From: Candidatus Nomurabacteria bacterium
GTDB lineage: Bacteria; Patescibacteriota; Minisyncoccia; Phycocordibacterales; CALRBL01
Length of the DNA: 64,000 nucleotides
Direction of reading: 5' to 3'
Assembly (NCBI GenBank): GCA_963834935.1
Contig: CAWIDS010000003.1
Coordinates: 37,999 to 101,998, forward strand
Shown here: piece by piece, positions 2,478 to 54,978 of the stretch
Layout of the letters: each line of letters opens with the position of its first letter
Numbering within the stretch: position 1 is the first letter of the stretch
Made by a program: the position numbers and the translations under genes
Notes under the pieces: generated by a model
Told to the model about the DNA's origin: nothing
Databases searched by the model: none
The model's input: the letters and a program-made list of their open reading frames with translations, nothing else

Positions 2478-4613
2478 TTATCCCCTGCCATACTCCTTTC
2501 TGCCTTTAATTCCCTTGTTCTCGTCCTTTTTTTCTTTCTTGTCGCGCTTCACTTTGTTGTCCATCCTTTCTACAATCGCTTTTATTTCATCGCGAAGTAT
2601 CGCAGCAGTTTCAAAATCCAGATCCTTCACCGCTTCGCTCATCTGCTTTTCTTTTTCCTTAATGAGCTTGGCTGGATTTTTCTGGTAGGCCTCTTCATCG
2701 AGCTTCAAAAGAGTTTTTATGGTCTTCTCATGCTCACTCTGAATCTCTTCGGTGATATCTTTGATTTTTTTGATGATAGTTGTCGGAGTAATCCCATGTT
2801 CCTTGTTGTAGGCAAGCTGGATAGTGCGACGACGCTCGGTTTCTTTCATGGCTTTCTCCATCGAATTGGTAATCTTGTCGGCATAGAGAATGACGCGGCC
2901 TTCCGAATTTCTGGCTGCACGACCGATGGTCTGAATGAGCGCTTGTTCCGAACGGAGGAAGCCTTCCTTGTCCGCGTCGAGGATGCCTATAAGCGCCACT
3001 TCGGGAAGATCCAATCCTTCGCGAAGAAGGTTCACTCCGACAAGCACGTCGAATGTGCCTTTACGGAGCTCGGTCAAGATGCGAATGCGATCAAGCGTCT
3101 CGATATCGCTATGCAGATACTCCGCCTTTATCTTCTTTTCCTTCAGATACTCGCTTAAATCTTCTGCCATTTTCTTAGTAAGCGTCGTTGCAATCACCCT
3201 GAAGCCTTTCTTGATCACCTCGAGCGCTTCTTCGGTGAAATCGATCACCTGGCCAAGGTATTTCTTGTCAGTAGTACTGACGATCGGCTTGACGGAAATG
3301 ATCGGATCGACAAGACCTGTCGGACGGATGATCTGCTCCGCAATGTTTTGGCTTTTTTCGAATTCGTATTTGCCTGGAGTAGCCGAAGTATAGATAGCTT
3401 GACCGATTTTTTTCTCAAATTCCTCGAACTTGAGAGGGCGGTTATCACGAGCAGATGGCAATCGAAAGCCGAATTCGATGAGGCTTTGCTTTCGCGAAGC
3501 GTCTCCGGCATACATTCCGCCTATCTGCGGAATGGTGACGTGTGACTCGTCGATGATGGTCAGGAAATCCGCACTGCCATCGGCATTATGGGGAAAATAT
3601 GAAAGCAGCGAATCGGGTGCTTCTCCGGGAGCCTTGCCCGAAAAATGCCGGGAATAGTTCTCTATGCCGTTGCAATAGCCGACTTCCTTGATCAGCGCGA
3701 GGTCGTAATTGGTTCGGCGCTTCAGGCGGTCAGCTTCGAGTATCTTGCCTTCAGCTGCCAATTCTTTCAGCCTCCTGTCGAGTTCGGCTTTGATGTCCTT
3801 GATTGCACGGATGCGCTCGTCTTCCGGCGTGACGAAATGCTTTGCAGGAAACAAGAAGAAGACGGGGACCTCCTCGACGATCCTGCGGGTTATTTCGTCT
3901 ATCTTGAAGACGCTTTGTATCACGCTTTCGCCTTTGACAGTTGCGCCGAATTCAACTTTGTAGATCACCCGTTCGGATGTCGGCATGATTTCTATTTTGT
4001 TTCCCATCGCCCGGAACGTTCCCGGACTCAAATCTGCATTGGTACGCGTAAAGTAGATGGAAATGAGCCGGCGGATGAACTCTGCGCGGTCGGTCTTTGC
4101 GCCTGCCTGTATTTTCATATTGACTTTCTGATATTCCACAGGACTTCCCAAGCCGTAGATGCAAGAAACGGACGCGACGATAATCACGTCATTGCGACTA
4201 AGAAGCGCTTGAGTAGAAGCATGGCGCAGTCGGTCAATTTCCTCATTTATCTGCGCTTCCTTCTCTATATATGTGTCAGTCGTCGGCATGTAGGCTTCCG
4301 GCTGGTAGTAGTCGTAATAGGAAACAAAGTAGTGGACGGCATTATCTGGAAAGAATTCCCGATATTCCTGAGCAAGCTGGGCCGCGAGAGTTTTGTTGTG
4401 GGCAATCACCAGCGTCGGCTTGCCGACATGAGCAATCACATTCGCCACAGTGAAAGTCTTTCCGCTGCCTGTCACTCCGAGCAATGTCTGATGCCTGTAG
4501 CTTCGCTCGATACCTTCAATGAGGCTCTCAATAGCCTTTGGCTGATCCCCTGCGGGAGCAAATCGGGTGGAAATCTTGAATAGGTTTTCTTTTTTCTGCT
4601 CTTTTTTTGCCAT
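2478..4613 (-). CDS. uvrB: Excinuclease ABC subunit B
   Basis: 711 aa with Walker A GVTGSGKT, the UvrB beta-hairpin region and helicase motifs, and a lysine-rich C-terminal tail. An upstream TGTATAGT-like -10 lies 6 nt before the ATG, which implies a leaderless transcript. Confidence 0.95.
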   Translation of the reverse strand: MAKKEQKKENLFKISTRFAPAGDQPKAIESLIEGIERSYRHQTLLGVTGSGKTFTVANVIAHVGKPTLVIAHNKTLAAQLAQEYREFFPDNAVHYFVSYYDYYQPEAYMPTTDTYIEKEAQINEEIDRLRHASTQALLSRNDVIIVASVSCIYGLGSPVEYQKVNMKIQAGAKTDRAEFIRRLISIYFTRTNADLSPGTFRAMGNKIEIMPTSERVIYKVEFGATVKGESVIQSVFKIDEITRRIVEEVPVFFLFPAKHFVTPEDERIRAIKDIKAELDRRLKELAAEGKILEADRLKRRTNYDLALIKEVGYCNGIENYSRHFSGKAPGEAPDSLLSYFPHNADGSADFLTIIDESHVTIPQIGGMYAGDASRKQSLIEFGFRLPSARDNRPLKFEEFEKKIGQAIYTSATPGKYEFEKSQNIAEQIIRPTGLVDPIISVKPIVSTTDKKYLGQVIDFTEEALEVIKKGFRVIATTLTKKMAEDLSEYLKEKKIKAEYLHSDIETLDRIRILTELRKGTFDVLVGVNLLREGLDLPEVALIGILDADKEGFLRSEQALIQTIGRAARNSEGRVILYADKITNSMEKAMKETERRRTIQLAYNKEHGITPTTIIKKIKDITEEIQSEHEKTIKTLLKLDEEAYQKNPAKLIKEKEKQMSEAVKDLDFETAAILRDEIKAIVERMDNKVKRDKKEKKDENKGIKGRKEYGRG

Positions 4614-6641: not shown

Positions 6642-7180
6642 TATTTGATGCTGACCAGCTCAATCTCGAAAATCAATGTCGAATTCGCAGGAATAGTTCC
6701 GGTCGACGTAGGCACTGCCTGATTGCCGTATCCGAGAGCTGGCGGAATGATCAGCTTTCGCTTTCCTCCAACTTTCATGCCAACAACTCCTTCATCCCAT
6801 CCTTTGATCACCTGACCCACTCCGAGCGTGAATGGCAGAGGCTGGTTCCTGTCATACGAGCTGTCGAATTTCGTACCATCCTCGAGCGTTCCGACATAAT
6901 TCATCTCAAGCTGATCCCCAGCTTTGGCTGCGGGACCTGTTCCTATCTGTTCGTCCTGGATAATAAGGCCATCAGGAAGCGTTGTTGGTTCGTTCATGTT
7001 TGTGGTTGTTGTTGCTTGTGCTGTTAATGCTGCCGATGTCGCCGCTTGATTCGTATCCGGCGCCGACACTACTGTTGGTCCCATCGAATTCTGGTAAAGG
7101 CTATATCCGCCTAAAGCGATGCCAACGGCGATAAGGGCGATGACGATCGCTATCCATTTATTTTTCTCTGTTGTGTTCAT
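6641..7180 (-). CDS. FKBP-type peptidyl-prolyl cis-trans isomerase, membrane-anchored
   Basis: C-terminal FKBP domain (DGTKFDSSYDRNQPLPFTLGVGQVIKGWDEGVVGMKVGGKRKLIIPPALGYG) with an N-terminal transmembrane helix. Start chosen at the ATG (MNTTEKNKW) and not at the track start. Confidence 0.8.
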   Translation of the reverse strand: MNTTEKNKWIAIVIALIAVGIALGGYSLYQNSMGPTVVSAPDTNQAATSAALTAQATTTTNMNEPTTLPDGLIIQDEQIGTGPAAKAGDQLEMNYVGTLEDGTKFDSSYDRNQPLPFTLGVGQVIKGWDEGVVGMKVGGKRKLIIPPALGYGNQAVPTSTGTIPANSTLIFEIELVSIK

Positions 7181-8509: not shown

Positions 8510-8518
8510 GCAAATAAA

Positions 8519-20219: not shown

Positions 20220-20244
20220 ATATATTCATTGTAACATACGCCAG

Positions 20245-20829
20245 ATGAAATATGCCAACTTCATAGCTTCAGCTTTTTTGATTTCCGCCGTCGTCTTTTT
20301 AGATCCAAAAGGTCAGCCCTTTAGCTCTTTCAGCGCGAATATGCAGAAGAGTTTTTATCTTGATGATTGCAAAAAAGACACTGTCCATCCGCCTTCGGGC
20401 GACAATTCCCTTTTCCAGGTCATAAGCGTCATAGATGGCGACACGATTGAGATAGAGAAAGGCTGCAAGCCGATAAAAATACGCTTCATTGGCATCAATA
20501 CGCCCGAAAGCGTCGATCCCCGCCGTCCCATCCAATGTTTCGGCCTTGAAGCATCTCATCATGCGAAAGAAGTCCTTTCGGGCAGGAAGGTTCGCATCGA
20601 GACCGACTCTTCGCAAAATGCATTGGACAAGTATGGAAGAACGTTGGGATATGTAATACTAGAGGACGGGACCAACTTTAATCTTGAAGAGGTCCGGGAC
20701 GGCTACGCGTATGAATATACCTATGACACCCCCTACAAATATCAAAAAGAATTCAAGCAAGCAGAAGAAGACGCCCGCGAGCAAGGAAGAGGCCTTTGGG
20801 CTCAAAACACCTGTGATGGAAAAAAGTAA
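20245..20829 (+). CDS. Thermonuclease (SNase/micrococcal nuclease family), secreted or membrane-anchored
   Basis: VIDGDTIEI...IRFIGINTPE...YGRTLGYV motifs of staphylococcal-nuclease homologues; start chosen at the ATG (MKYANF). Confidence 0.75.
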   Translation: MKYANFIASAFLISAVVFLDPKGQPFSSFSANMQKSFYLDDCKKDTVHPPSGDNSLFQVISVIDGDTIEIEKGCKPIKIRFIGINTPESVDPRRPIQCFGLEASHHAKEVLSGRKVRIETDSSQNALDKYGRTLGYVILEDGTNFNLEEVRDGYAYEYTYDTPYKYQKEFKQAEEDAREQGRGLWAQNTCDGKK

Positions 20830-28350: not shown

Positions 28351-29433
28351 CTATTTCGTAAGATTAAAAAGAGCAGGTTCGGTGGAAGTAGCTTCTACCT
28401 TGAAGCTTATCCTTCCGATGTGCTGGCCCGTGCGAGTCTCCACATCTACCCTCCATGAGCCGAGCGCCAAGGAATCCTTCTCGGAATACGTCCGGAAGCC
28501 GTTGTCGCGGCCGCCAACGATGGGAAGGTCGATGCGCGCCGTCTCGACCCACTTCTTGCTCTTGGCGTCGTAATATTGCCAGACATGATAGATATCGGTA
28601 TTGAGGTGGGTCGGCGAAAAGACCGCGCTCCAGACATAGACCGGATCGCCGGCAGCGATATGGACCGTCTCCTGGAATTCGAAGAAATTCCACCAGCTCG
28701 GCAATTCTTCCGCGGTAACGGCATACGTGCCATCTCCATTCCTGGAGATCGAATGATAGATGCCGGCATCCTTAAGCGAAAGCGGCAGCGGCGGGATGAT
28801 ATCGTAGAAATAAAGGACGTTCATGATGACGATGATGCTGAACACGCTTATGAGGACCAGCTTGCGGCTTTGCGCATACTGAGTGGGAGCGATCTTCTTC
28901 AGGATGAAAAGGAATATGCCGATGATGACCAGGCTGATGAATCCGCTCAAGACGAAGATCTCGTCTCCGATCTGATGCACCATTACCGGCACGATGAAGA
29001 TGGCGAAGGAATAAATTGAGACGAAGAGGACTGTTATCTGAAAGACGAGCCGCGTGTAATGCTTTTTCAAGGCCTCGTTGCAGACGAAGACCGCGATGAG
29101 GACAAGGAGGAACGGCCAGCTTACCGCCAGCGTGGCGCTCCTGAAGTAGAAGACGATGAACGTGCTCAACAGTCCTCCGAAGGCGAATTGGATCAAGATA
29201 ACCAGCCAGAAATGCACCCTTTTGTCGCCCTCGGAATTCCTGGTATAAAAATTGATGGCGATGATGCCGAATGCAGCTACTAAAAGATGAGCGAGGACCC
29301 ACAGGTTATCCCAGAACAGGTCCACCCGCGTCAGGCTGACCGCATCGAAAATGAATCCGCTGATGAGGGAAAGAGACGAGATATGCCTTTCATATTTGAA
29401 ATAGAATTTCTTGACGTGCTTCAAGGGCTTCAT
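28351..29433 (-). CDS. Polytopic membrane protein with a C-terminal extracytoplasmic beta-rich domain, possibly DUF2914-like
   Basis: Start placed at the ATG (MKPLKHV). The upstream 300 aa of the 666-aa track ORF have no coding character. Confidence 0.55.
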   Translation of the reverse strand: MKPLKHVKKFYFKYERHISSLSLISGFIFDAVSLTRVDLFWDNLWVLAHLLVAAFGIIAINFYTRNSEGDKRVHFWLVILIQFAFGGLLSTFIVFYFRSATLAVSWPFLLVLIAVFVCNEALKKHYTRLVFQITVLFVSIYSFAIFIVPVMVHQIGDEIFVLSGFISLVIIGIFLFILKKIAPTQYAQSRKLVLISVFSIIVIMNVLYFYDIIPPLPLSLKDAGIYHSISRNGDGTYAVTAEELPSWWNFFEFQETVHIAAGDPVYVWSAVFSPTHLNTDIYHVWQYYDAKSKKWVETARIDLPIVGGRDNGFRTYSEKDSLALGSWRVDVETRTGQHIGRISFKVEATSTEPALFNLTK

Positions 29434-29452
29434 GCCGCAATTGTAACTTGTT

Positions 29453-29481
29453 TTGACAGAAATGAACAGATAAGGTTTAAT
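29453..29481 (+). promoter_or_regulatory. Consensus-like sigma70 promoter with -35 TTGACA, a 17-nt spacer and -10 TTTAAT
   Basis: TTGACA at 29453-29458 and TTTAAT at 29476-29481; the ATG at 29491 is 9 nt downstream, giving a leaderless or near-leaderless transcript. Confidence 0.5.
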
Positions 29482-29490
29482 ACAGGCCGA

Positions 29491-29904
29491 ATGAGCACAC
29501 TGACATCGCCTCAAGATGTCGCAAAACATCTTCTTAGGAACAGCGGTACCCTTCTCGCCATCAAGCGTCAGACCTTGTATGGGGGACAGCCACTGTCGCG
29601 CAGCCAAATCGGATTGTTGAATGAAATTGGAGACCAGATCATCGGTTTCGGCATCGAGATAGAGAATTTGAAAACAAGTGACATCATGCTCGCCATAATG
29701 GCGGTGAATCATGTCAGGAAGTTCGGAAACTCCTTTTCTCACAATGCCGCGTACCGCCGTAAAAATCAGCTCCAACTTAAACTTCTCTACCGGCGCGACG
29801 TTTCGAGACGCGAGGGTAAAGGAGAATACGTCGGCTGTATTGAGCTTGTACACCGGGAACTCAGCACGCATATTCCCTACGACGTCCTGAACGAGATGGT
29901 TTAG
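29491..29904 (+). CDS. Hypothetical protein (137 aa, MSTLTSPQDVAKHLL...)
   Basis: The only long ORF in this region on either strand, placed between a consensus promoter and a terminator-like hairpin. Confidence 0.4.
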   Translation: MSTLTSPQDVAKHLLRNSGTLLAIKRQTLYGGQPLSRSQIGLLNEIGDQIIGFGIEIENLKTSDIMLAIMAVNHVRKFGNSFSHNAAYRRKNQLQLKLLYRRDVSRREGKGEYVGCIELVHRELSTHIPYDVLNEMV

Positions 29905-29911
29905 CGACCCC

Positions 29912-29943
29912 AGCCTGCGTCCCCCGGACCAGGCTTTTTTATT
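29912..29943 (+). terminator. Candidate terminator hairpin
   Basis: agcctg-cgtcccccggac-caggct followed by tttttatttg. Confidence 0.4.
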
Positions 29944-30004
29944 TGACTGAATTTGCCCAGAACCAGACAAAGAGTATACTGTTTCCGAAACCGAAGGAGG
30001 CTTC

Positions 30005-30142
30005 ATGATCAATAAAATCTGGCATAAGCTTGTCAATCTCTTTTGTGTGATTTTTGTCCTTTTAGTGGTCTTCGTGTGGAACATGTGCATATCCGCCGCG
30101 AAGAAATTGAGGCGCCAAAAGAGGAATAAACATCCGAAATGA
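30005..30142 (+). CDS. Small hydrophobic membrane protein (45 aa, MINKIWHKLVNLFCVIFVLLVVFVWNMCISAAKKLRRQKRNKHPK)
   Basis: Strong Shine-Dalgarno site GAAGGAGG 5 nt upstream of the ATG; one transmembrane helix plus a basic tail; a hairpin and T-run follow. Not in the track because it is shorter than 60 aa. Confidence 0.5.
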   Translation: MINKIWHKLVNLFCVIFVLLVVFVWNMCISAAKKLRRQKRNKHPK

Positions 30143-30508
30143 ATGCTCCGCTTGCGTGGGGCTTTTTTAATGATATGTTTATGAAGGAAAAGCATGCGCC
30201 GATAACGCCCTTCTGGTCTTGGGACGGCGCGACAACAAAACCAGCATCCGGCTGCCGACCCAATGAAAAAACGCCACTTCGCACAAAAAATGAAAATGCT
30301 TTGCTTTGGCATTAGAAGTAGGCTTTGGCGCCAAAAAGTCAAAGCGGGCATGAAGACACGATAAAACGCCTTTGTGCCGCCGGTCTGACAGAATCAGGTG
30401 ATTGAGAATAACAGTGCAAATGGCCATACAGTCGCCCAACGGCCAGCAGCCGACTCATGATGAAAAGGGCTGGAATACACTCCTGTCATAGGTGGAAATC
30501 CAACAATG

Positions 30509-30549
30509 GTCCCGCGACGGCTCACATGCCGCGCGGGACCTCTTTTATT
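30509..30549 (+). terminator. Strong rho-independent terminator
   Basis: ggtcccgcg-(14 nt loop)-cgcgggacc followed by tcttttatt. Confidence 0.6.
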
Positions 30550-30596
30550 GACACGTCTATTTAAAGGTATAAAGTTTCCAATCGGAGGAAAAAAAT

Positions 30597-31115
30597 ATGA
30601 ACCTATTAGAGAAATTAGGATTCGGCAGTGCTGCTGAAGTGCAGCGACTGCTTTCAGCTCGTTCCAGTACCAAAGAGAGCGTCCCCGTTCCCCAACAGAC
30701 GAAACCTGCAGTGGCGGCAGATCCGCCGAAAAGGAAAGGAAGGCCGCCGAAGGCGCGCCATGCTGAAAACGGACATGTTGAACCGGCTGCTTCGGAGGAA
30801 ACGCCTCCAGTGAAAAAGACTGTTCGGTCGCGAACGCCGAGGCCTGACCGCCAACAGCTCGGTGAGCGTCTCGGCAGAGAGGCCAAGGTTAATGAAGGAG
30901 ACCGCATCCGCGTGATCGTGGCTGGCCGAGGGCATATTCCGATCAGTAAAATGGAAGACCGGAAAGCGATCGCTTACCTTTCCGAGGGAACCTACTTGCT
31001 GCTTGCAGCCAAAGACGGCTATGGCAATATCTGGTTGATCAGTGAGAAAAGCCCTGAACGAAACTCGGTCGGCAGAAATGCCGCCCGGCCATCGCAAGAT
31101 GGCTTTTTTATTTGA
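30597..31115 (+). CDS. Hypothetical DNA-binding protein with an AT-hook (PKRKGRPPKA) in a disordered basic N-terminal half and a C-terminal AbrB/MazE-like swapped-hairpin-type domain
   Basis: GGAGG ribosome-binding site and a TTGACA -35 at 30548. The GRP AT-hook core is present. The C-terminal stretch RGHIPISKMEDRKAIAYLSEGTYLLLAAKDGYGNIWL resembles SpoVT/AbrB motifs; this is inference. Confidence 0.55.
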   Translation: MNLLEKLGFGSAAEVQRLLSARSSTKESVPVPQQTKPAVAADPPKRKGRPPKARHAENGHVEPAASEETPPVKKTVRSRTPRPDRQQLGERLGREAKVNEGDRIRVIVAGRGHIPISKMEDRKAIAYLSEGTYLLLAAKDGYGNIWLISEKSPERNSVGRNAARPSQDGFFI

Positions 31116-31146
31116 ATCATATATACTCGCTCGAAAGGAGCACATT

Positions 31147-31443
31147 ATGCCGACGACTGAAATAAAAAGAACCGTGGATTTCATCTGGGGAGACCAACGG
31201 CCTTCCCATTGCGGAAAGATTGGCTTTGCCATCGAATGCCAAGGCGGAGTACTGTATGCGTTTATCTTCTTCAACGGAGAAGAGCGCCACATCAGCAGCC
31301 ATTACGATGGCTCGAGCTGGCAAAAGGAAACCATCTCACGAGTTCTTGCGGGATACGAATCCCTCCAAACCGACTTTTCCAAAGAGAGGCGCAAGCTTCT
31401 CGAGGATCAGCTTGAACGAGCGAAAGAACACGCCCTCATCTGA
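31147..31443 (+). CDS. Hypothetical protein (98 aa), partner of the AT-hook protein
   Basis: AAAGGAG ribosome-binding site 7 nt upstream; begins 31 nt after the previous stop; a terminator follows. Confidence 0.5.
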   Translation: MPTTEIKRTVDFIWGDQRPSHCGKIGFAIECQGGVLYAFIFFNGEERHISSHYDGSSWQKETISRVLAGYESLQTDFSKERRKLLEDQLERAKEHALI

Positions 31444-31450
31444 GGGTTTT

Positions 31451-33172
31451 TTATTTGTCCCCTTCGACCTCGGCCTTCACGAAAATCCGAACCAGCTGCA
31501 CTTCGCGGTAACTCACTGCAGGGCTCAGCTTGAATTTCTTCTTGTTCTTCTCAAGGTAATCCTTCGCAGGTGCCAAGCGCCAGTCCTTGTTTTTTTCATA
31601 CATCATGGCAAGCGCTTCAGAAATCGGATCAAAGCGCTTTTTAGGAATGGTTTTGCGGAGATATTCGACTTCTCGCAGGACCGCAGCATCTTCTTCGACC
31701 AATTTTTCAATATGATCGATGACTGTCTGCTCGGTGATTCCCCTCTTTTTTGCGATTTCCTCGATAAGCAATTCTTCCTTGATGAGCTCGTGGGTGACTT
31801 CGAATGTCGAAGGCTTCGCTGCTTTCTTCGGCTTTGATGAAGTGATCGAGGCAAGATAGCTTTCCTGCGCAGACTGAAGCTTTCCTTTCTTTGCGTATTC
31901 CTTGAGCTGCTTGACTGCCGTCTCTGATTGAACCTTCAGCTCTTCATCGTGCTCCAGCACCTCGTCATTGACCTCAAGAGCGCTTTCATTCATGCCAAGT
32001 ATGGTAAGGCCTGCAAGAGTGCGCACTCTGGAAAGCGCCACATAGCCCATTCCCTTCTCGAAGGATTTAGAAAGATCCACTTCTACCGCATCGAGCGACA
32101 TTCCCTGGCTTTTATGAACCGTGATTGCCCATGCCAGCCGGAGCGGATACTGCTGAAGCTCGGCTTTGGCTTTTCCCTCTTCCTCGATGGTCCAGCTTGC
32201 TATCGGAACTTCAATGAACTCGCCGGTGCGCAGTATTTCAACCACTGGCCCTCCGGCATTGCCTTCGAGCTTTCGCACGATTCCGAGGGTTCCGTTGGCG
32301 AAGCCTATCTCGAAATCATTCTTGACGAACATCACGCGCGCACCCGCTTTCAATCGGAGCCTCTCGGGAGCGAGGCAGCTTTTTTTCAGGATCGATACCA
32401 GCATGTCGGAGCCGGAGGTATGCATGTCATAATTCATCGACTGGCCGTCGAGCACGTCGAGCTCATTCTCATTCACCTTGTCCACATCGATATTGTGGGT
32501 ATAAAGGCGCGTCGGCTGGATGCTCATTTCTTCTTCCTTCTTGTTGGCTTTGAAGCATTTCTTCAGATGATCCATCGTGGTTCCGCTTACCCTGTTTCCG
32601 CGGATGTCATTGAGGACGGTCAGCGCGTGGTCGTCCGTCTGTCGGTACTGCTCCTCCAGATAGCAGATCTTGAATCCGGCATTCTTCCATGATTCGGAAT
32701 GGTAGGCGAAATGCGCATCCTGCTCGCCCATCCGCGATACCGGCGGAAGCTGGAAGAAATCGCCGCAAAGGATCACCTGTATGCCGCCGAAAGGCTTGTC
32801 ATTCCTCTTGAAAGTGCGGACTATCTTCTCCACCAGATCAAGGCGGAAATGATGAAGCATGGATATCTCGTCGATGATGAGCACTTTCACGCGCTCCATG
32901 CGCTTCCAGAGATACGGCTTCTCGAGCATCGCCTCAAGGTCGTAGTCGCTGATGCTGTCACGCACGCCGAGGCCTGTCCAGGAATGGATAGTCACGCCTC
33001 CCATGTGCGTAGCAGCAATGCCCGTGGAGGCGGTAATTCCGACATCGACATCATGATGATTAAGGTAATCGATGTACTGATTCAAAAGATGAGTCTTACC
33101 CGAGCCTGCAGGCCCCGTAATATACGCATTGCAGCCGAGCTTGAGGATGTCGAGAGCTTCTTTTTGAGTCAT
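31451..33172 (-). CDS. Pif1-like/RecD-like superfamily 1B DNA helicase with a C-terminal helix-turn-helix-like extension
   Basis: Motifs GPAGSGKT, IIDEISML and ILCGDFFQLPPV, plus a C-terminal domain of about 120 aa (KKRGITEQTVIDHIEKLVEE). Start placed at the ATG (MTQKEALD). Confidence 0.8.
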   Translation of the reverse strand: MTQKEALDILKLGCNAYITGPAGSGKTHLLNQYIDYLNHHDVDVGITASTGIAATHMGGVTIHSWTGLGVRDSISDYDLEAMLEKPYLWKRMERVKVLIIDEISMLHHFRLDLVEKIVRTFKRNDKPFGGIQVILCGDFFQLPPVSRMGEQDAHFAYHSESWKNAGFKICYLEEQYRQTDDHALTVLNDIRGNRVSGTTMDHLKKCFKANKKEEEMSIQPTRLYTHNIDVDKVNENELDVLDGQSMNYDMHTSGSDMLVSILKKSCLAPERLRLKAGARVMFVKNDFEIGFANGTLGIVRKLEGNAGGPVVEILRTGEFIEVPIASWTIEEEGKAKAELQQYPLRLAWAITVHKSQGMSLDAVEVDLSKSFEKGMGYVALSRVRTLAGLTILGMNESALEVNDEVLEHDEELKVQSETAVKQLKEYAKKGKLQSAQESYLASITSSKPKKAAKPSTFEVTHELIKEELLIEEIAKKRGITEQTVIDHIEKLVEEDAAVLREVEYLRKTIPKKRFDPISEALAMMYEKNKDWRLAPAKDYLEKNKKKFKLSPAVSYREVQLVRIFVKAEVEGDK

Positions 33173-38767: not shown

Positions 38768-39334
38768 CTAATACTTTCGAATGACGCCTTTCACGATAGC
38801 AGCAATAGTGAGATCATTCTCCGGAAAGATCGGCTTGTATTTCTTGTTAGCAGGTTCAAGGTAAACTTTACCACCTTTCTTGCGTAGATATTTCATCGTC
38901 CAATCACCATCTACTTGGGCGATGACGATGTCGCCATCCTTCGGCTCGTTCTTGCGCTCAACGATAACGAGATCGCCTTCTTGGATGGCGGCATCGATCA
39001 TTGAATCGCCTTTCACTTCGAGAATGTAGGTCTTGTCCTTGTCGCCGACAAGATAGTCGTCGAGGCTTAACATGTCGAGCACTTGGGAATCGGCAACCGA
39101 AGGGATTCCGGCTTCAACCAACCCAAGAAGAGGCAATTCGTTCATCAATGATGTCGGCGTCAGCCGGCCGTTGTCATCCTTGGTGACTATTCCCTCCTCA
39201 ACCAACTTATTGATCAGCTTGTAGACGGCATTCTTGGATTTGAAGCCGACCAGATCCATGATCTCCTTATACCCAGGCATGCGACGATGCCGCTTGTAGA
39301 AGGAAGTTATTTTATTCTTGTATTGCTCGTACAT
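38768..39334 (-). CDS. lexA: LexA repressor (S24 peptidase)
   Basis: N-terminal winged helix-turn-helix; Ala-Gly cleavage site (VEAGIPS); GDSM catalytic Ser; Lys in MKYLRKKGG. Confidence 0.85.
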   Translation of the reverse strand: MYEQYKNKITSFYKRHRRMPGYKEIMDLVGFKSKNAVYKLINKLVEEGIVTKDDNGRLTPTSLMNELPLLGLVEAGIPSVADSQVLDMLSLDDYLVGDKDKTYILEVKGDSMIDAAIQEGDLVIVERKNEPKDGDIVIAQVDGDWTMKYLRKKGGKVYLEPANKKYKPIFPENDLTIAAIVKGVIRKY

Positions 39335-39355
39335 ATTGATGCTTTTGTTCCTGTA

Positions 39356-39562
39356 TTATAGGACGAAAGCGCTTAAAAAACTAAGAGATTCGGAAAGCCA
39401 TGATGAAGTGTAGCCTTGTAGGTCGCGAAGCTGCCTCGAAAGGAACTTGTGTCGGCGCGCTTCATTCTTGTATGGAAGGCCCTTGATGATCTTGATATCG
39501 ATCTCTGCGTTCAGCTTCGACAATTCCCTTTCTATTTTCCTACTTAATGCGTGATTGCTCAT
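39356..39562 (-). CDS. Small protein (68 aa) encoded immediately upstream of lexA in the same operon
   Basis: ATG at 39560-39562, 21 nt ahead of lexA; coiled-coil character, possibly a DUF465-like small protein. Confidence 0.5.
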   Translation of the reverse strand: MSNHALSRKIERELSKLNAEIDIKIIKGLPYKNEARRHKFLSRQLRDLQGYTSSWLSESLSFLSAFVL

Positions 39563-39599
39563 GTTTTTGTTGGTTATTTGATAATTTTCTTATATTTAT

Positions 39600-39628
39600 A
39601 GTATAGGTGAACTTAAGTTCACCGTCAA
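39600..39628 (-). promoter_or_regulatory. SOS promoter on the minus strand: -35 TTGACG, a 17-nt spacer and -10 TATACT, with a LexA operator-like palindrome GGTGAAC-TTAA-GTTCACC (39606-39623) filling the spacer exactly
   Basis: Perfect 7-4-7 inverted repeat of the Cheo-box type GAAC-N4-GTTC, read directly from the sequence. Confidence 0.6.
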
Positions 39629-39723
39629 GCAGATAGTTGTGGATAACTGAAAAAATAGACAATATCGCGAGGAGAAAGGCATAATGATTTTTAAAAAACC
39701 ATCAAGGCTATATCAACCACCCT

Positions 39724-39750
39724 CAGCCTGCGCTAAGCAGGTTTTTTATT
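39724..39750 (+). terminator. Rho-independent terminator upstream of tRNA-Gln
   Basis: cctgc-gctaa-gcagg followed by ttttttattt. Confidence 0.5.
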
Positions 39751-39797
39751 TGCTTGAAATATGCTAAATTGGGAACCTCAAGGGACCGCCCTTACAT

Positions 39798-39871
39798 TGC
39801 GAGATCGTCTAATGGTAGGACATCAGGTTTTGGTCCTGAGTATCTAGGTTCGAGTCCTAGTCTCGCAGCCA
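39798..39871 (+). tRNA. tRNA-Gln (anticodon UUG), CCA encoded
   Basis: Hand-folded cloverleaf: acceptor tgcgaga/tctcgca; D-arm gtct-aatggta-ggac; anticodon stem tcagg/cctga with loop ttTTGgt; T-arm ctagg-ttcgagt-cctag; discriminator g followed by cca. Confidence 0.8.
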
Positions 39872-39931
39872 GCGTATTACACGCCGAGTGACCGACTCGC
39901 GTTATATTTTTCAACCTAAAAAAGTCACTCC

Positions 39932-39944
39932 GTTCGAGTCCTAG
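39932..39944 (+). repeat. 13-nt direct repeat of the tRNA-Gln T-arm (GTTCGAGTCCTAG, identical to 39848-39860); an inverted copy GACTCGAA lies at 39962-39969
   Basis: Exact match 72 nt downstream of the tRNA 3' end, resembling an attachment-site scar. Confidence 0.5.
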
Positions 39945-40031
39945 ATACATGACAGGAAAGAGACTCGAACAGCACTAGGGATGGTGGTTAAGTTTAAATG
40001 ATACAATTAGGTTTATAATATTTTAAAAACT

Positions 40032-40415
40032 ATGAACACGGAACTTATTGAATCTATAGGATCACGAGGTGAAAATTTGCTTGAGAAAAATCTTCACAAA
40101 GATGAAACCGTTCTTGTAAAATTAGGGGGTTCATTTGGTGAAGCTTTGGTTATGACAAACAAGCACGTTTATATTATTAAGTGGGGCTTAATGACCCATA
40201 ATGTTTTTGGAGGCAATTGCAATGCTTTTGATTATGGAAATATTGTTGGACTTGAGATAAAAAGAAGTCTTATAAACGGCACTGTAGAAGTTTTAACTGC
40301 TGCAAATAAAGATGTGAAGACAAGACAATCGGTTACCCGTCGCTCTCAAGGGGGAAACCCTCAGGCTCTTTCTTCAATCGCTTTTTTCTTGTCTGATTTA
40401 TCCTGTCTATTTTAA
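40032..40415 (+). CDS. Hypothetical protein (127 aa) with a bacterial PH-like (bPH/DUF304-like) signature, encoded by a low-GC gene
   Basis: KDETVLVKLGGSFGEALVMTNKHVYIIKWG; the local GC is clearly lower than in the flanks; TATAAT at 40014. Confidence 0.5.
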   Translation: MNTELIESIGSRGENLLEKNLHKDETVLVKLGGSFGEALVMTNKHVYIIKWGLMTHNVFGGNCNAFDYGNIVGLEIKRSLINGTVEVLTAANKDVKTRQSVTRRSQGGNPQALSSIAFFLSDLSCLF

Positions 40416-40563
40416 ATAAGATGTCGAAAAGCCCTGCTAAATTGCGAATACCCTCTGGATCCATGGGATCCTCTACCGCTTCATATGTTACTTCCATATT
40501 TTTTTATGAATATGACTTATAAACGAGACACCGACAGATGTCTCGCTAGGGGAATTCGTTCAG

Positions 40564-41027
40564 ATGATCCGAAAGGAAAATATGCCTGAATCAGAACCGG
40601 AGCAACAGCTCCAAAACCTACGAACGTACCTCACCATCAGCGAGCCTTTCAGACACTACCGCGGCAAATTAGGCAACGGCTGGACAGGAACAGGAATGTT
40701 CCTTGAGCTAAAAGATTCGAGTCCACGGCAATACTCGATCAGTTCGACTGGCGCAATAGCCAGATACGCGTGCTCATGAACCACCGGGCGAAACTTCGTC
40801 GAGACGGTCAACTGGCCGCATTTGAGGAACTCAGCTGCGCACTCACCAACCCTGACTTCGTCATTACTGACGAAGAGCTTCCACTTCACAAGAGAACTCC
40901 CGGCGTCCTGCTTTTGTACTACCCTGAGCGGATACTGGAATTGATCAAGTGGATGAAGCTCGTTAGTCCGGAGATAGTGGACTTGCAGCTTGGTCATCCT
41001 GGATCATTTGCATTTGGATATGAATGA
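40564..41027 (+). pseudogene. Two overlapping ORFs in different frames (71 aa and 85 aa); possibly one disrupted gene
   Basis: The ORFs at 40564-40779 and 40770-41027 overlap by 10 nt; there is no recognisable family; an antisense 113-aa ORF also exists. Confidence 0.25.
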
Positions 41028-41198
41028 TTCGCTCTTCGACCTCAAGCGCTGGCGGGATCAGGAAAATGAACCCGACAAGAATGAAATAGGGCTGAAACTT
41101 CATTTCCTTGAAAATTAAGCAGTTTGATTTCTCACACACTCAGTCCGGACGAAAGTCTAGACGGGGTGTTTTTTATTTCAAATTGGTATACTGTCCCC

Positions 41199-41657
41199 AT
41201 GCAAAATTACTGGCTCATAAAAAGCGAACCGACCTGCTATTCGATTGACGACCTTGCAAGGGACAGGCAAACGCTCTGGACCGGAGTCAGGAATTACCAA
41301 GCACGGAATTTCATGAGGGATGAGATGAAGCCGGGCGACCTTGCTCTATTTTATCATTCAAGCACCGAGGTGATCGGCGTCGTTGGCGTTGCAGAAATAT
41401 CCGGTCCGTCCGTATTCGATAAGACAGCCTTAGACAAGAAAGATGATCATTTCGACCCGAAAGCCACCAGGCAAGATCCGATCTGGTATGCGGCACAAAT
41501 AAAATTCAAAAGAAAATTGGCAAAGCCAGTGACATTGGTACAGATAAAATTCAACCCGAAGCTCAAAGGCATCATGGTAGCAGCTACCGGATCGCGCCTT
41601 TCCGTCCAACCTGTCTCGGAAGCTCATTACAAGGAAATCATTGCCATGGCGGAATAA
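41199..41657 (+). CDS. EVE (PUA-like) domain protein
   Basis: YWLIKSEP...WTGVRNYQARNFMRDEMKPGDLALFYHS; leaderless, with TGgTATACT at 41184-41192 lying 6 nt before the ATG. Confidence 0.7.
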   Translation: MQNYWLIKSEPTCYSIDDLARDRQTLWTGVRNYQARNFMRDEMKPGDLALFYHSSTEVIGVVGVAEISGPSVFDKTALDKKDDHFDPKATRQDPIWYAAQIKFKRKLAKPVTLVQIKFNPKLKGIMVAATGSRLSVQPVSEAHYKEIIAMAE

Positions 41658-41700
41658 TTAACCAATTCTCTCTGTCCAGATTTTTTATTATAATATATCC

Positions 41701-42666
41701 ATGAGCACCGAAAAGAAATTCGCTTTCCTCCGCATCGCCTTCGGCTGCGTTTGGGCTATTGATGCCTGGTTCAAGTGGCAGCCTGCATTCCTTAATGGTC
41801 TCAGCGACATGCTGACATCAATGCTCGCCGGCCAGCCGGGGTGGGTCCAGGCATGGATCAACCTCTGGATATCCATAATCAGCATCAATCCTCACTTTTT
41901 TGCTCTCATCATCGCCCTCACTGAGACCGCAATTGCCCTCTCCCTCATCTTTGGCTTCCTTACCCACATTACGCTGGCCACAAGCATCGTTTTCTCGCTG
42001 CTCATCTGGTCTGTCGGAGAAGGATTCGGCGGCCCATATGCGGCAGGCTCGACAGACATGGGCTGTGCCGTTATATATGCATTCGTTGCCGCTGCCTTGT
42101 GGTTCGGCCATTCATGGAGAGCTTACAGCGCTGACAGCCTCATATGGAAAGATCCCCATCATGTTGCCGTCGTCCGCGAAGATAAGAAAGATACCATCAT
42201 CAAGCTTCTAATTCTTGGCATCATTATCCTTGGCTCGATCATTCTATCTGCTCACGTACCCGCAGCAACAGCGCCTTCTGATCAAAGCATAAGCACCGGT
42301 CCCGGCGCCATGGCGCCTGCAGGCATGACACTGAAAACACTCGACCTTGCTCCGACTGATCCTGTTCCCACCGTCGCTTTCACTATCAATAAGGATCCTG
42401 TGGCCATGGGCGGCTGGGATGTGCATATCACCACCACGAACTTCATCTTCACGCCGCAGAACGTGAATCAGGCGCCCGTCGTAGATCAGGGCCATGCGCA
42501 TTTGTATGTCGACAGCAAGATGTATGTCGTCTACGGTAATTGGTATCACCTCGACGATGTCCCTCCCGGACAGCATCTCATAACCGTCTCCCTTATGGCC
42601 AATGACCACAGCATTTTCTCGAAAAACAGGCAATGGATCGAAGCCACGACAACGATTAACCAATAG
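41701..42666 (+). CDS. DoxX-family membrane protein fused to a C-terminal extracytoplasmic domain of about 130 aa
   Basis: Four transmembrane helices (DoxX-like) followed by a soluble domain containing GHAHLYVD. Confidence 0.6.
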   Translation: MSTEKKFAFLRIAFGCVWAIDAWFKWQPAFLNGLSDMLTSMLAGQPGWVQAWINLWISIISINPHFFALIIALTETAIALSLIFGFLTHITLATSIVFSLLIWSVGEGFGGPYAAGSTDMGCAVIYAFVAAALWFGHSWRAYSADSLIWKDPHHVAVVREDKKDTIIKLLILGIIILGSIILSAHVPAATAPSDQSISTGPGAMAPAGMTLKTLDLAPTDPVPTVAFTINKDPVAMGGWDVHITTTNFIFTPQNVNQAPVVDQGHAHLYVDSKMYVVYGNWYHLDDVPPGQHLITVSLMANDHSIFSKNRQWIEATTTINQ

Positions 42667-42680
42667 AAAGTTAGAAAAAA

Positions 42681-42710
42681 TAAAAATCCCCTTGCTGGGG
42701 ATTTTTATTT
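42681..42710. terminator. Bidirectional intrinsic terminator
   Basis: aaaaa-atcccc-ttgct-ggggat-ttttatt. Confidence 0.65.
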
Positions 42711-42727
42711 GTCAGATCAACGTTGCC

Positions 42728-43549
42728 TTAGAATCCGAAGATGTGCATGAAGAACTGGCCGATACCTGCCAAGAAGCCTTTAGGCTTGGCATTTTGGGGT
42801 CCTGGAGCAGGATTTGCGCCTCCGGAATTAGCACCCGCTTGTCGATCAATGATGGTAGATGCAGCGATAGCATTTCCATTTATGGTTCCCTGGACGACAA
42901 CAGTATCACCGACTGCGATATTTGAGATGCTTGCAGCGGTGTTTCCTTCAACAACTTTGGCATTCGTGGCATCAACAGTATACGAGACGTTGCTTGAATT
43001 AGTGATGACGACGGAGTCTCCGTTAATCGATGCCACTTTTCCAGCAACTATAGGATTTCCATTGCCCACGAAGGGTGCTGTGCCGGAAGCTGAGCGGGGT
43101 CCGCCTTGTGCACCCGGTGCGCCGCGCATGCCGACGCCGTCACGTATTATGGTTGCAGTGACATTCGTTCCGCTCACTGTTCCCTGGACGAAGACATTGT
43201 CGCCAGTTGCGATGTTTGAAACGCTGCTTGTAGCATTATTCTTCATCACAATCGCATTTGTCGCATCGACTGTATAAGTGACCGACGCAGCGCCCGAGCC
43301 CATGCCCTGACGGCCGCTGACCGTGATGGAATTTCCATTCACAGCCGAAACAGTACCAACAACCGCAGGACGCATGCCTCCCATCCTATATCCGCCTGGA
43401 CCCCGACCTTGCTGTCCCGAGCCTCCGCTAATACCAACATTAACGTTCGCGTTAACACCTACGCTCTGGGCAGAAGCAGGGAGAGTCAGTGAAAGGCTGG
43501 TAAAAAGGGCTGCTATGGCAATGATTGAAGCGATTTTCTTGATTTTCAT
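42728..43549 (-). CDS. Secreted protein with two tandem DUF5666-like repeats and Gly-rich linkers
   Basis: Signal peptide; repeat units ITV...VSYTVDATNA.V......SNIA.GD.V.VQGT..G....A..I occur twice. Confidence 0.65.
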   Translation of the reverse strand: MKIKKIASIIAIAALFTSLSLTLPASAQSVGVNANVNVGISGGSGQQGRGPGGYRMGGMRPAVVGTVSAVNGNSITVSGRQGMGSGAASVTYTVDATNAIVMKNNATSSVSNIATGDNVFVQGTVSGTNVTATIIRDGVGMRGAPGAQGGPRSASGTAPFVGNGNPIVAGKVASINGDSVVITNSSNVSYTVDATNAKVVEGNTAASISNIAVGDTVVVQGTINGNAIAASTIIDRQAGANSGGANPAPGPQNAKPKGFLAGIGQFFMHIFGF

Positions 43550-44389: not shown

Positions 44390-44662
44390 AAAAGACAAAA
44401 CTCGAAACGATGAGAAAAAAACTGAATGTACTCGATGAAAGGCTCATCCGCATCCTTGCAAAAAGGCAGTCTTACATGCCGGCAATCGGCGCTTGGAAAA
44501 AAAGAATGCAAGCTGCCCATAAGTTACCCTGCGCGAGAAAGAGAGATCATCAAGAATATGCGCGCGCTTGCAAAGGAGAAAAATATTGACCCTGACCTAA
44601 TCGAGAAGATATTCAAAGCAATCTTCAAGGACGCAAAAAGGATTCAGAGGTATAATGACTAG
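44386..44662 (+). pseudogene. AroQ-type chorismate mutase interrupted by a frameshift in an A7 run at 44497-44503
   Basis: The N-terminal part (MKKTKLETMRKKLNVLDERLIRILAKRQSYMPAIGAWKK) and the C-terminal part (KLPISYPAREREIIKNMRALAKEKNIDPDLIEKIFKAIFKDA) lie in two frames; deleting one A restores a single 91-aa ORF. Confidence 0.6.
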
Positions 44663-45079
44663 ATGAAAGGGAAAAATCAAAATGAAAGAGAATACAGGGA
44701 ATACAAACGTCCGAGCTGGGCTCCACCATCGTGGCTTTTTGCGCCGGTATGGAGCTTCCTTTATGCCCTGATATTGGTCTCGTTCAGCTATGCAGGCTAT
44801 CTCTATCTCGCCCGTGTGATACCCTTCATTGTACTGCTGCCGTTCATCCTCAACATTATCTTCAATGTCACCTACACGACATTTCAATTCAAGCTGAAGA
44901 ATTTCGTGCTCGCTTCCATTGATGTGCTTCTTATCCTCGGCACCCTCATCTGGGCAATGATAACAGTCTATCCTTTCGTCCATTGGGTCACCGTCATCAA
45001 CATCCCTTATCTGCTCTGGGTTTCCTTCGCTACCATCCTTGAATTCACCGTAGTCACGATGAACTGGAATAGGAAATAG
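44663..45079 (+). CDS. tspO: TspO/MBR (tryptophan-rich sensory protein) family protein
   Basis: SWAPPSWLFAPVWSFLY and five transmembrane helices. Confidence 0.8.
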   Translation: MKGKNQNEREYREYKRPSWAPPSWLFAPVWSFLYALILVSFSYAGYLYLARVIPFIVLLPFILNIIFNVTYTTFQFKLKNFVLASIDVLLILGTLIWAMITVYPFVHWVTVINIPYLLWVSFATILEFTVVTMNWNRK

Positions 45080-53150: not shown

Positions 53151-53642
53151 CTCATATTCCATTATCCGCAGCATCGTCATTCCCAAAGAGCAGCCCGCTC
53201 TTTCATTGAGCATCAGTGCTGCAAGAAAGCGCTCGGGAAGAACGAGAACAAGATAACGTTCAGGCAGGATGTTGGCGCCGTCACTAAGAGAGGACTGGCG
53301 CTCTGCCGGGAGGAGCTTTTTGAATTCCACGAATTCATCATCGCTCATCACTTCCGCCCGCGAAAGAGCATCGTCCGCAAAAGGACTGAGCAGCGCCAGA
53401 CCCGCAATCAGATCGGCTCTCGTCGCGACATGATCGAGAAAATAAACATAATCTTTCATCTCGAAATCAATCATATCATTAACATTGATTGGTCCCATAT
53501 CTCCGAAGGCCTCCTTCGGAAGGTGCCAGCCGGTGCTGCTCATCATTGAGTTGGCCTGCCGCAACGTCCTGCGCGGTACGATCACTAAGGGAAATTCCGA
53601 TTGGTTTTTCATAGGTACAGTTAACTTAAACGAGTCTAGCAT
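53133..53642 (-). CDS. Hypothetical protein (169 aa)
   Basis: ORF with its own terminator; unknown family. Confidence 0.5.
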   Translation of the reverse strand: MLDSFKLTVPMKNQSEFPLVIVPRRTLRQANSMMSSTGWHLPKEAFGDMGPINVNDMIDFEMKDYVYFLDHVATRADLIAGLALLSPFADDALSRAEVMSDDEFVEFKKLLPAERQSSLSDGANILPERYLVLVLPERFLAALMLNERAGCSLGMTMLRIMEYEQDNPD

Positions 53643-53786
53643 AATTTAAAAAACGTACCACTCGTGCGGTACATCAGGCTGATTGTAATTCTGAGCGGAT
53701 CACTTGAAAAAACCTGAAAACTCTTCTTCTATCCCCCAGTTTCTTTTGACAAAAAAGGCGGAATATATTAGATTTCTCTCTTAGAT

Positions 53787-53939
53787 ATGTCAAACAGAAA
53801 AGCACAACAGGCACGGGAGACTTACCAATCAACCATCCGGCCCGGAGGCCGAGGACAGAAGCCATCGCTTCACCAGATTGTCGATTCGCGCAAGAATCTC
53901 CAAGCCGTCACCGGCGACAGAAAGAAGGGCCGCTTGTAA
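53787..53939 (+). CDS. Candidate small basic protein (50 aa, MSNRKAQQARETYQSTIRPGGRGQKPSLHQIVDSRKNLQAVTGDRKKGRL), or alternatively a small RNA
   Basis: Lies between a TTGACA -35 at 53744 and a strong terminator at 53971-53996; there is no Shine-Dalgarno site. Confidence 0.3.
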   Translation: MSNRKAQQARETYQSTIRPGGRGQKPSLHQIVDSRKNLQAVTGDRKKGRL

Positions 53940-53970
53940 GTTCCGCTTCACATTTTTCTTTGTTCAGTCC

Positions 53971-53996
53971 CCGCCACGTAGGCGGTTTTTTATTTT
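53971..53996 (+). terminator. Rho-independent terminator
   Basis: ccgcc-acgta-ggcgg followed by ttttttatttt. Confidence 0.6.
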
Positions 53997-54024
53997 CTCA
54001 ACCTGAAAATGATATAATAGTCGG

Positions 54025-54978
54025 ATGCAGCCTTCGCGAAAGACTTCTTGGATTCCTTTGCTTCTTCTCATCGCAGTCGTTGGTGCCGGCTTCTATTACA
54101 AAGCCCCGCTGCTCAATCTCGTCCAGACGATCGAGACAAGCTTCCAGCCGAAGCCGTGCGAGAAGCCTATTACCTATTCCGTCGTCAGCTTCGATCCGCG
54201 TTTCGGTTTGAGCAAACAGGATTTTATCAATGACTTGGAACAAGCGGCATCTATCTGGCAAGGAGCGCTCAACCGTCCCCTTCTTCAGTACGTGCAGCAA
54301 GGAGGCGTAGTCAGCGTCAATCTCGTTTACGATCAAAGGCAGGCTTCCACAGTCAAACAGCAGCAGATCAGCACACACATCGACAGCAAGCGCACAGCCT
54401 ATGAATCGCTTAAAGCTGAATTCGATTCGGAAAAAGCGGCCTACGACCAGCAGAAAGCTGACCTTGATGCGAAGATAAGCGCCTATGAATCGCAAAAAAA
54501 CTCTTACCAGCAAGAAGTTGACTACTGGAACAGCCAAGGCGGCGCACAACCAGCGGAGTATGCGAAGCTGCAAGCCGAGAAGCAAAGTCTCGATAACCAG
54601 AATGCGGAGCTGACTGAGGAAGAACAGCGGGTCAACGCATCAGCAGTACAGCTCAACCAAACCGTCACTAATCTTAACGCGATGGTAAAGGATCTCAATC
54701 TCAATGTGGCTACTTATAATTCGGTTGGAGATGCCGTCGGACCAAACTTTGCCGAAGGTGAATATGTCACTGGTCCTTCGGGAAGGATGATAAATATCTA
54801 TCAATATAGCAGCCAGGACAAGCTCATCCGCGTACTTGCTCACGAGATGGGACATGCCCTCGGTCTCCAGCACATCAACAATCCGAGAGCCATCATGTAC
54901 TACTTGAATGAAGGAGTGAATGATCAGCTCACTCAGGACGATATCAATGAATTAAAACAAGTTTGCGGAACCAATTAA
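54025..54978 (+). CDS. Matrixin-like zinc metalloprotease (metzincin), membrane-anchored, with a coiled-coil spacer
   Basis: HEMGHALGLQH (HExxHxxGxxH) motif; leaderless, with TGaTATAAT at 54010-54018 lying 6 nt before the ATG. Confidence 0.8.
   Translation: MQPSRKTSWIPLLLLIAVVGAGFYYKAPLLNLVQTIETSFQPKPCEKPITYSVVSFDPRFGLSKQDFINDLEQAASIWQGALNRPLLQYVQQGGVVSVNLVYDQRQASTVKQQQISTHIDSKRTAYESLKAEFDSEKAAYDQQKADLDAKISAYESQKNSYQQEVDYWNSQGGAQPAEYAKLQAEKQSLDNQNAELTEEEQRVNASAVQLNQTVTNLNAMVKDLNLNVATYNSVGDAVGPNFAEGEYVTGPSGRMINIYQYSSQDKLIRVLAHEMGHALGLQHINNPRAIMYYLNEGVNDQLTQDDINELKQVCGTN

Follow-up and report, generated by a model that had tools for sequence, protein, structure and literature searches.

Type I toxin-antitoxin loci are known from Bacillus (txpA/RatA and bsrG/SR4) and from Escherichia coli (tisB/istR-1 and hok/sok). 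The small bacterial membrane regulators AcrZ, MgrB, MgtS, and KdpF have one transmembrane helix and a positive-inside tail, and each is expressed from a small transcription unit of its own. Phage "morons" and accessory ORFan cassettes are promoter–gene–terminator units placed between core genes. Leaderless genes have been described in Actinobacteria and Deinococcus-Thermus, for example in the leaderless transcriptome of Mycobacterium tuberculosis (Cortes et al., 2013, as cited in PMC12641261). These systems are compared here with a pocket of short genes and non-coding DNA at positions 29434–30596 of a 64-kb stretch of a Patescibacteria (Paceibacteria-like) genome; the whole 64-kb stretch is called the window below. 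The pocket is mostly ordinary, comprising a real leaderless gene, a plausible orphan membrane peptide, and about 340 nucleotides (nt) of non-coding DNA. According to the best reading, to which we assign a probability of roughly 0.55, it consists of a leaderless gene of 137 amino acids (aa), an orphan membrane micro-gene led by a Shine-Dalgarno (SD) site within a small SD-led cassette, and a spacer closed by an insulating terminator. The pocket would then be a series of small genes, each transcribed on its own, in a genome whose starts are mostly leaderless.

The open reading frame (ORF) of 137 aa is a genuine gene of a rare, unnamed protein family. A HMMER search of 1.8 billion representative proteins returned four homologues of 133–171 aa, with E values from 1.6e-21 to 3.8e-4 and near full-length alignments. 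The codon log-odds of the ORF were +0.19 per codon, the same value as for MsrB. AlphaFold2 (AF2) modeling with a five-sequence alignment gave a predicted local distance difference test (pLDDT) score of 90.6 and a predicted template modeling (pTM) score of 0.86, and the model comprised five helices, then a three-stranded sheet, and then a last helix. No match to the protein was found in Pfam, PHROG, NCBIfam, PADLOC, or PDB, and scans of genome, metagenome, and viral collections with it also found nothing.

The first-pass annotation had placed a near-perfect promoter in front of this ORF, with a start codon 9 nt after the -10 element and a hairpin plus T-run at the end of the gene. The coordinates and the 17-nt spacer of the promoter were correct, but its quality was overstated. 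Position 2 of the -10 hexamer is not the consensus A, and for this reason TTTAAT was missed by the consensus scan. The start 9 nt after the -10 element was borne out as that of a genuine leaderless gene by the homologues, the codon score, the predicted fold, and a recurring geometry. The hairpin and T-run directly after the ORF were likewise recovered, with a folding energy of -15.1 kcal/mol (z score, -4.15). In three of the four homologue lineages (loci L002, L006, and L007), the upstream region repeats the geometry of -35 element, -10 element, and ATG with no SD, and TTGACA-17-ATTAAT-8-ATG, TTGAAT-16-TAACTT-8-ATG, and TTGACA-17-CATAAT-8-ATG were found; the fourth lineage has GGAGG in place of the leaderless geometry. 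This recurrence supports leaderless expression of the 137-aa gene. Its messenger RNA (mRNA) would begin at the AUG or within 1–2 nt of it, from TTGACA-17-TTTAAT, and the product is predicted to be cytoplasmic. The four homologues are located in neighborhoods unrelated to the pocket locus and share no DNA similarity with the pocket. Since no small transmembrane ORF adjoins any of them, the 137-aa gene and its 45-aa neighbor are not a conserved pair.

Leaderless starts are not confined to the pocket and, judged from the sequence upstream of start codons, appear to be the usual mode of gene start in this genome. A TAnnnT box was found 5–10 nt, mostly 6 nt, before the ATG in 23 of the 49 ATG-initiated ORFs of at least 150 aa (47%); among internal ATGs, the proportion was 9.3%. 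Three of the same 49 ORFs were preceded by SD-like motifs, compared with 12.9% of controls, which puts these motifs at or below the level expected by chance. The arrangement TATAAT-6 nt-ATG is seen, for example, at 41701, 48354, 50578, and 54025, and MsrB and DUF2914, which adjoin the pocket, are also of the leaderless type. In the literature library searched, no report of leaderless dominance in Patescibacteria was found.

Sequence comparisons covered protein, genome, metagenome, viral, and plasmid collections. The best DUF2914 homologues come from sources named Candidatus Pacebacteria, Paceibacterota, and Minisyncoccia, and the genome was assigned to its group on this basis. The same DNA occurred in a single Logan contig (99.98% identity) from one sample, look-ups with identical MsrB and 172-aa proteins led to the same sample only, and the nearest relative of the DUF2914 protein was 57% identical. 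Every comparative test is therefore limited by the lack of a close relative in the collections reached. A sequence check located all of the elements that the first-pass annotation had named in the pocket. The codon-based gene map of the window gave a coding fraction of 0.88. The pocket had been described as gene-poor; its gap of 692 nt is real, and only one gap in the window is larger, but it is not exceptional, as other gaps occur in the window (one of 1,864 nt and five of 311–511 nt). Gene-free gaps of 380–510 nt lie at 53547–54057, 1975–2477, 20220–20710, and 44390–44773.

The minus strand of the pocket holds a long frame that is open from 30351 to 28351 (666 aa), and the public gene call here is a 614-aa "DUF2914" protein (Logan contig, 2703–4547). 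If this annotation were correct, the DUF2914 protein would be N-terminally extended (614 aa as called, 666 aa as open), and the plus-strand ORFs would be shadows. The extended form has a TATCGT-6 nt-ATG start signal at 30351 and 306 additional open codons, for which the chance is 0.009 × 0.087. The second factor reflects the absence of TTA, CTA, and TCA codons from the 137-aa gene (p ~0.09), which leaves its antisense frame open; the first is the probability, from dinucleotide shuffling, that the remaining 149 codons (29905–30351) are stop-free (p ~0.009). However, the extension is present in none of the 119 homologues listed, all of which are 366–407 aa long and match only the C-terminal 51–55% of the long ORF. 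The codon score is +0.33 bits per codon for the 360-aa part, as in other genes of the window, versus a non-coding value of -0.14 for the extension. The 360-aa form has a leaderless promoter of its own (29440–29468), and the product of the gene on the opposite strand has real homologues and is confidently modeled. In the window, 110 stretches of 140 or more codons are stop-free, about double the number of real genes of that length, and many of them are therefore shadow frames. Homologue lengths, codon score, the separate DUF2914 start, and the opposite-strand gene thus exclude the 614-aa call and the 666-aa frame as a real gene, and the probability left to the public annotation is negligible. 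It is an antisense artifact, the N-terminal 254 aa of which are a shadow over the 137-aa and 45-aa genes. The miscall also explains why the protein collection has no entry for the 137-aa protein. The neighborhoods of the closest DUF2914 homologues were unlike the pocket locus and had no DNA similarity to it.

Downstream of the 137-aa gene, the 45-aa ORF (MINKIWHKLVNLFCVIFVLLVVFVWNMCISAAKKLRRQKRNKHPK) is, as far as its sequence features indicate, most likely a real, lineage-specific gene for a single-pass membrane peptide. Its strong SD, already pointed out in the first-pass annotation, lies 4 nt before the ATG and belongs to one of the three intergenic strong-SD starts in the 64 kb. The hairpin and T-run reported behind the ORF are present as well, with -11.2 kcal/mol and a z score of -3.1. 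The maximum hydropathy over 19 residues is 2.71, a value reached by two of 158 ORFs of similar size in the window, and the codon score of -0.05 is neutral. The mRNA would be about 180 nt long, with a leader of about 17 nt that is hardly more than the strong SD itself. Homologues of the peptide were found neither in a collection of 5.8 billion proteins nor in JGI metagenome DNA, and genome, metagenome, and viral scans with it found nothing.

The first-pass annotation had likened the peptide and its non-coding flank to a type I toxin-antitoxin locus. In such a locus, the 45-aa peptide would be the toxin, and the antitoxin would be either a minus-strand antisense RNA starting from TATCAT or TATCGT or an adjacent plus-strand RNA. 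The shape of the peptide is typical for this: with 45 aa, one transmembrane helix, a hydropathy of 2.71, and a basic tail of charge +8, it falls within the size class of hydrophobic membrane toxins (<60 aa). It also has its own promoter-like site and terminator, and convergent bare -10-like hexamers are found on the minus strand (TATCAT at 30175–30170, and TATCGT 6 nt before the ATG at 30351). Hexamers of this kind are nevertheless expected by chance at 3.5 per kb per strand, no minus-strand site between 29900 and 30600 reached the promoter score used, and there is no minus-strand terminator. An antitoxin was sought as a cis-antisense or adjacent RNA able to pair over about 18 nt or more. Between the peptide mRNA and the RNA downstream of it, the best inverted repeat spanned 24 nt with 71% complementarity. 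The duplex of the two RNAs had an energy of -93.1 kcal/mol, compared with -95.2 ± 8.2 kcal/mol for random genomic segments. Furthermore, the mRNA is not unusually structured (fold z score, -0.70) and has a fully consensus SD, and searches with Hok, Ldr, TisB, Fst, and other toxin models (Pfam, NCBIfam, and PADLOC; E ≤ 0.1) gave noise only. With complementarity at chance level, no scored antisense promoter, and no toxin-family match, the toxin-antitoxin interpretation was not upheld, and we regard it as decidedly improbable. The literature library searched contained nothing relevant on type I toxin-antitoxin systems in Patescibacteria.

The stretch of about 340 nt behind the 45-aa gene had been proposed as a structured non-coding RNA (ncRNA) without a credible ORF on either strand. 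The second part of this proposal agreed with our results: the codon score of 30171–30507 was negative in all six frames, no ATG inside it combined a convincing -10 element or SD with a coding signal, and its small ORFs had no family matches. At its end, the very stable GC stem plus T-run was also present, with a folding energy of -29.3 kcal/mol and a z score of -7.75, much stronger than the neighboring terminators; the stem has 13 bp at 30508–30540 (the first-pass annotation gave 9 bp). The hairpin is unique in the window, which excludes it as a repeated element.

One possible, though rather unlikely, explanation of this stretch is an ncRNA of about 360 nt that is new and specific to the lineage. 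Either it would start from a promoter at 30152–30179, or it would be processed out of transcripts reading through from the 45-aa gene; its 3' end would be at the terminator at 30508–30549. In addition to the orphan terminator and the lack of coding potential, the A-rich plus strand and the candidate promoter TTGCGT-16-TGaTATGTT are consistent with such an RNA. This promoter, the best that the plus strand offers, is weak and of the extended -10 type, and no -10-like hexamer with at least five of six matches occurs on either strand within 30180–30548. The full interval including the terminator gave fold z scores of -2.2 (plus strand) and -1.8 (minus strand). However, eight interior windows of 119–120 nt folded like shuffled sequences (z scores from -0.92 to +0.99), and the full-length signal is therefore that of the terminator itself.

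No known RNA family, among them RNase P, transfer-messenger RNA (tmRNA), SRP, and 6S RNA, riboswitches, and large ncRNAs, accounted for the stretch either. With Rfam 15, the only match in the window at the gathering threshold was tRNA-Gln, and at E ≤ 10 the interval 29300–30700 yielded four chance-level matches, the best of which reached 21 bits against a cutoff of 55 bits. This best match, a "Phe leader," corresponds to the terminator of the 45-aa gene. ARAGORN found no tmRNA. These scans provided no known-RNA match for the ncRNA candidate, and with the terminator as the only stable element, the idea of a structured ncRNA was not substantiated. There is no second copy of the stretch in the window, and no relatives were found in the loci of the 137-aa homologues, in the window, or in the genome, metagenome, viral, and plasmid collections; an exact 24-mer from it had no match in the metagenome and genome collections. 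A pseudogene or paralogue was also considered and rejected, as tblastn with all ORFs of the window and tblastx with the homologue loci gave noise only.

Alternatively, the 340 nt could encode a cis-regulatory leader, a riboswitch or an attenuator, of the 172-aa gene downstream, and the hairpin at 30508–30549 would then serve as the expression platform. The geometry resembles that of an attenuator, because the terminator is followed by an SD after 35 nt and by an ATG after 48 nt. On the other hand, no riboswitch, T-box, or leader family was matched in Rfam, no upstream segment is able to pair with the terminator arm as an antiterminator, and the only promoter upstream is the weak site at 30152–30179. 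A good promoter, matching 10 of 12 positions, lies between the terminator and the 172-aa gene. Taken together, we consider such a leader very improbable.

Under the preferred reading of the pocket as short genes and a spacer, the 340-nt stretch is non-coding spacer, probably either left over from lost sequence or the tail of read-through transcription, and the very strong terminator would shield the promoter of the 172-aa gene against transcription coming from upstream. Several points weigh against this reading. A strong terminator located 340 nt beyond another good terminator suggests transcription in between, and the four other nearby terminators are each no more than about 10 nt away from a stop codon. 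An RNA of 360 nt could be driven by the weak extended -10 promoter, and the plus strand of the stretch is A-rich, as transcribed strands often are. A new RNA is compatible with the lack of both excess folding energy and an Rfam match. Conservation of the 340 nt has no comparison set, since the organism comes from one sample with no close relative. Finally, a foreign origin of the SD-led genes is argued from their composition and missing homologues, with no donor.

The 45-aa gene is the first member of the cassette in the preferred reading. The only intergenic starts with a strong SD in the 64 kb are those at 30005 (45 aa), 30597 (172 aa), and 31147 (98 aa), and they are consecutive. All three genes share one layout, in which a -10 box is followed after 6–7 nt by the SD and after a further 4–8 nt by the ATG, with a terminator at the end. 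Their codon scores were -0.05, +0.02, and +0.09 for the 45-, 172-, and 98-aa genes, respectively, compared with 0.33 ± 0.09 for the training genes, and the dinucleotide signature of 29751–31250 ranked sixth in deviation among 250 windows. The promoter that the first-pass annotation had placed for the next gene immediately after the GC hairpin was confirmed as TTGACA-16-TAAAGT, with matches at 10 of 12 positions. A TTGAC directly after a terminator is not independent evidence of a promoter, because the T-run of terminators often continues into a TTGA that resembles the beginning of a -35 element. The terminator-tail motif TTTTTATTTG occurs in eight copies in the window (at 8511, 29936, 31105, 31448, 34725, 39743, 42702, and 46457), compared with 0.26 expected.

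The sole match of the 172-aa protein among 5.8 billion proteins was the protein itself, and genome, metagenome, and viral scans with it found nothing. Pfam, PHROGs, NCBIfam, and PADLOC contained no family match for the 45- and 172-aa ORFs, and the 98-aa ORF likewise had no family or phage match. The absence of homologues refers to the 45-aa and 172-aa products; the 98-aa product was outside the homologue search. Phage tblastn and plasmid blastn searches revealed no relatives of the cassette sequences searched, and a PDB sequence search with the pocket proteins gave no match. The AF2 model of the 172-aa orphan, built from the single sequence, had a pLDDT of 46 and was too poor for use. In the N-terminal half of this protein (residues ~20–95; 30630–30760), the sequence is rich in proline, lysine, and arginine, and the segment KRKGRPPKA resembles an AT-hook; beta strands were predicted, with low confidence, only in the C-terminal ~50 residues.

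From these features, we infer that the three SD-led genes form a compositionally atypical, lineage-specific accessory cassette of about 1.5 kb that was recently acquired or has newly evolved. That the 45-aa peptide and the 340-nt stretch constitute a new RNA-controlled module of a small toxin or regulator, with an ncRNA of no known family, carried on this SD-dependent cassette in a genome that is otherwise leaderless and free of SD sites, seems quite improbable to us. The coordinates of the features in and around the pocket are compiled in Table 1.

Table 1. Genes, signals, and non-coding elements in and around the pocket (positions in the window)
Feature	Position	Strand	Remarks
DUF2914 gene	28351–29433	-	Pfam DUF2914 match; true length 360 aa
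Promoter-like TGTTCA-17-TACAAT	29440–29468	-	6 nt before DUF2914 ATG; leaderless; back to back with promoter of 137-aa gene
Promoter TTGACA-17-TTTAAT	29453–29481	+	TTGACA 29453–29458, TTTAAT 29476–29481; ATG 29491, 9 nt later; no SD
137-aa leaderless gene, rare uncharacterized family	29491–29904	+	Homologues, codon score, AF2 model
Intrinsic terminator of 137-aa gene	29912–29945	+	10-bp bulged hairpin (29912–29935) and TTTTTTATTTG tail
Promoter-like TTGCCC-16-TATACT of 45-aa gene	29953–29980	+	Promoter scan
SD GAAGGAGG	29993–30000	+	4 nt before ATG 30005
45-aa orphan ORF	30005–30142	+	One predicted transmembrane helix, residues ~9–31; +8 C-terminal tail
Intrinsic terminator of 45-aa gene	30145–30170	+	7-bp stem (30145–30162) and T6; 2 nt after stop
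Non-coding stretch	30171–30507		No RNA family, excess structure, convincing promoter, or relative detected
13-bp GC hairpin with one bulge, tail TCTTTTATT	30508–30549 (hairpin 30508–30540)	+	Terminator without preceding ORF
Promoter-like TTGACA-16-TAAAGT of 172-aa gene	30548–30575	+	10/12 positions; best promoter-like site in 4 kb
SD GGAGG of 172-aa gene	30584–30588	+	8 nt before ATG 30597
172-aa SD-led orphan gene	30597–31115	+	Terminator 31087–31114 inside 3' end of gene
98-aa SD-led gene	31147–31443	+	AAAGGAG, 6 nt, ATG; terminator 31432–31457

Two other regions of the window were noted. The strongest deviation in dinucleotide signature was at 39000–43500, which adjoins tRNA-Gln (39798–39871) and the largest gene-free gap (39335–41198). 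This region contains two ORFs without family matches, a gene with an EVE domain (41199–41657), and a LexA-like gene (38768–39334), and may represent an island that was integrated at the tRNA. At 32381–32387, the window has a homopolymer of seven T, and the Logan contig of the same sample has five (at about 6731–6737). With T7, the gene for a PIF1-like helicase of 605 aa, which has an HTH_40 domain at its C terminus, is intact; in the Logan contig, it is split into two genes of 284 and 293 aa. Either an assembly error or length variation accounts for this difference.

The points that argue for the ncRNA or toxin-antitoxin idea are the shape of the peptide and the orphan terminator, and put in those terms the locus matters little. 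By-products of modest use are a corrected annotation, a new protein family, and the contrast between leaderless and SD-led starts. The 137-aa protein defines a rare family with a confident predicted fold that has neither a PDB match nor an annotation. The 614-aa miscall hides this real, conserved gene together with a probable micro-gene, and similar miscalls are to be expected when gene callers trained on SD sites are applied to leaderless genomes. If the contrast seen here is general, SD-led starts in leaderless genomes could mark recently acquired or newly born genes.

Compared with type I toxin-antitoxin loci, the 45-aa locus is alike in that a short gene standing by itself between non-coding flanks encodes a hydrophobic peptide of less than 60 aa with one helix and a charged tail. 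It differs in having no detectable antisense promoter or complementary RNA, an mRNA that is not unusually structured and has a short consensus SD as its leader, and no toxin-family homology, repeats, or multiple copies. The peptide has no sequence similarity to AcrZ, MgrB, MgtS, and KdpF and has neither a nearby partner gene nor conservation, but it is similar to them in size, in its single helix and positive-inside tail, and in its independent transcription unit. With the leaderless genes of Actinobacteria and Deinococcus-Thermus, the window shares a -10 box 6–10 nt before the ATG, the lack of an SD, and the large fraction of genes concerned; the differences are that the host here is a Patescibacteria-like metagenome-assembled genome and that the starts are deduced from DNA sequence. 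Unlike phage morons, the SD-led cassette lies outside any phage, plasmid, or integrase context, and the collections searched contained no viral or plasmid relatives. It resembles morons and ORFan cassettes in its three consecutive small genes, each with a -10 box and a terminator, in its atypical codon and dinucleotide usage, and in its use of SD sites, which is foreign to the habit of the host.

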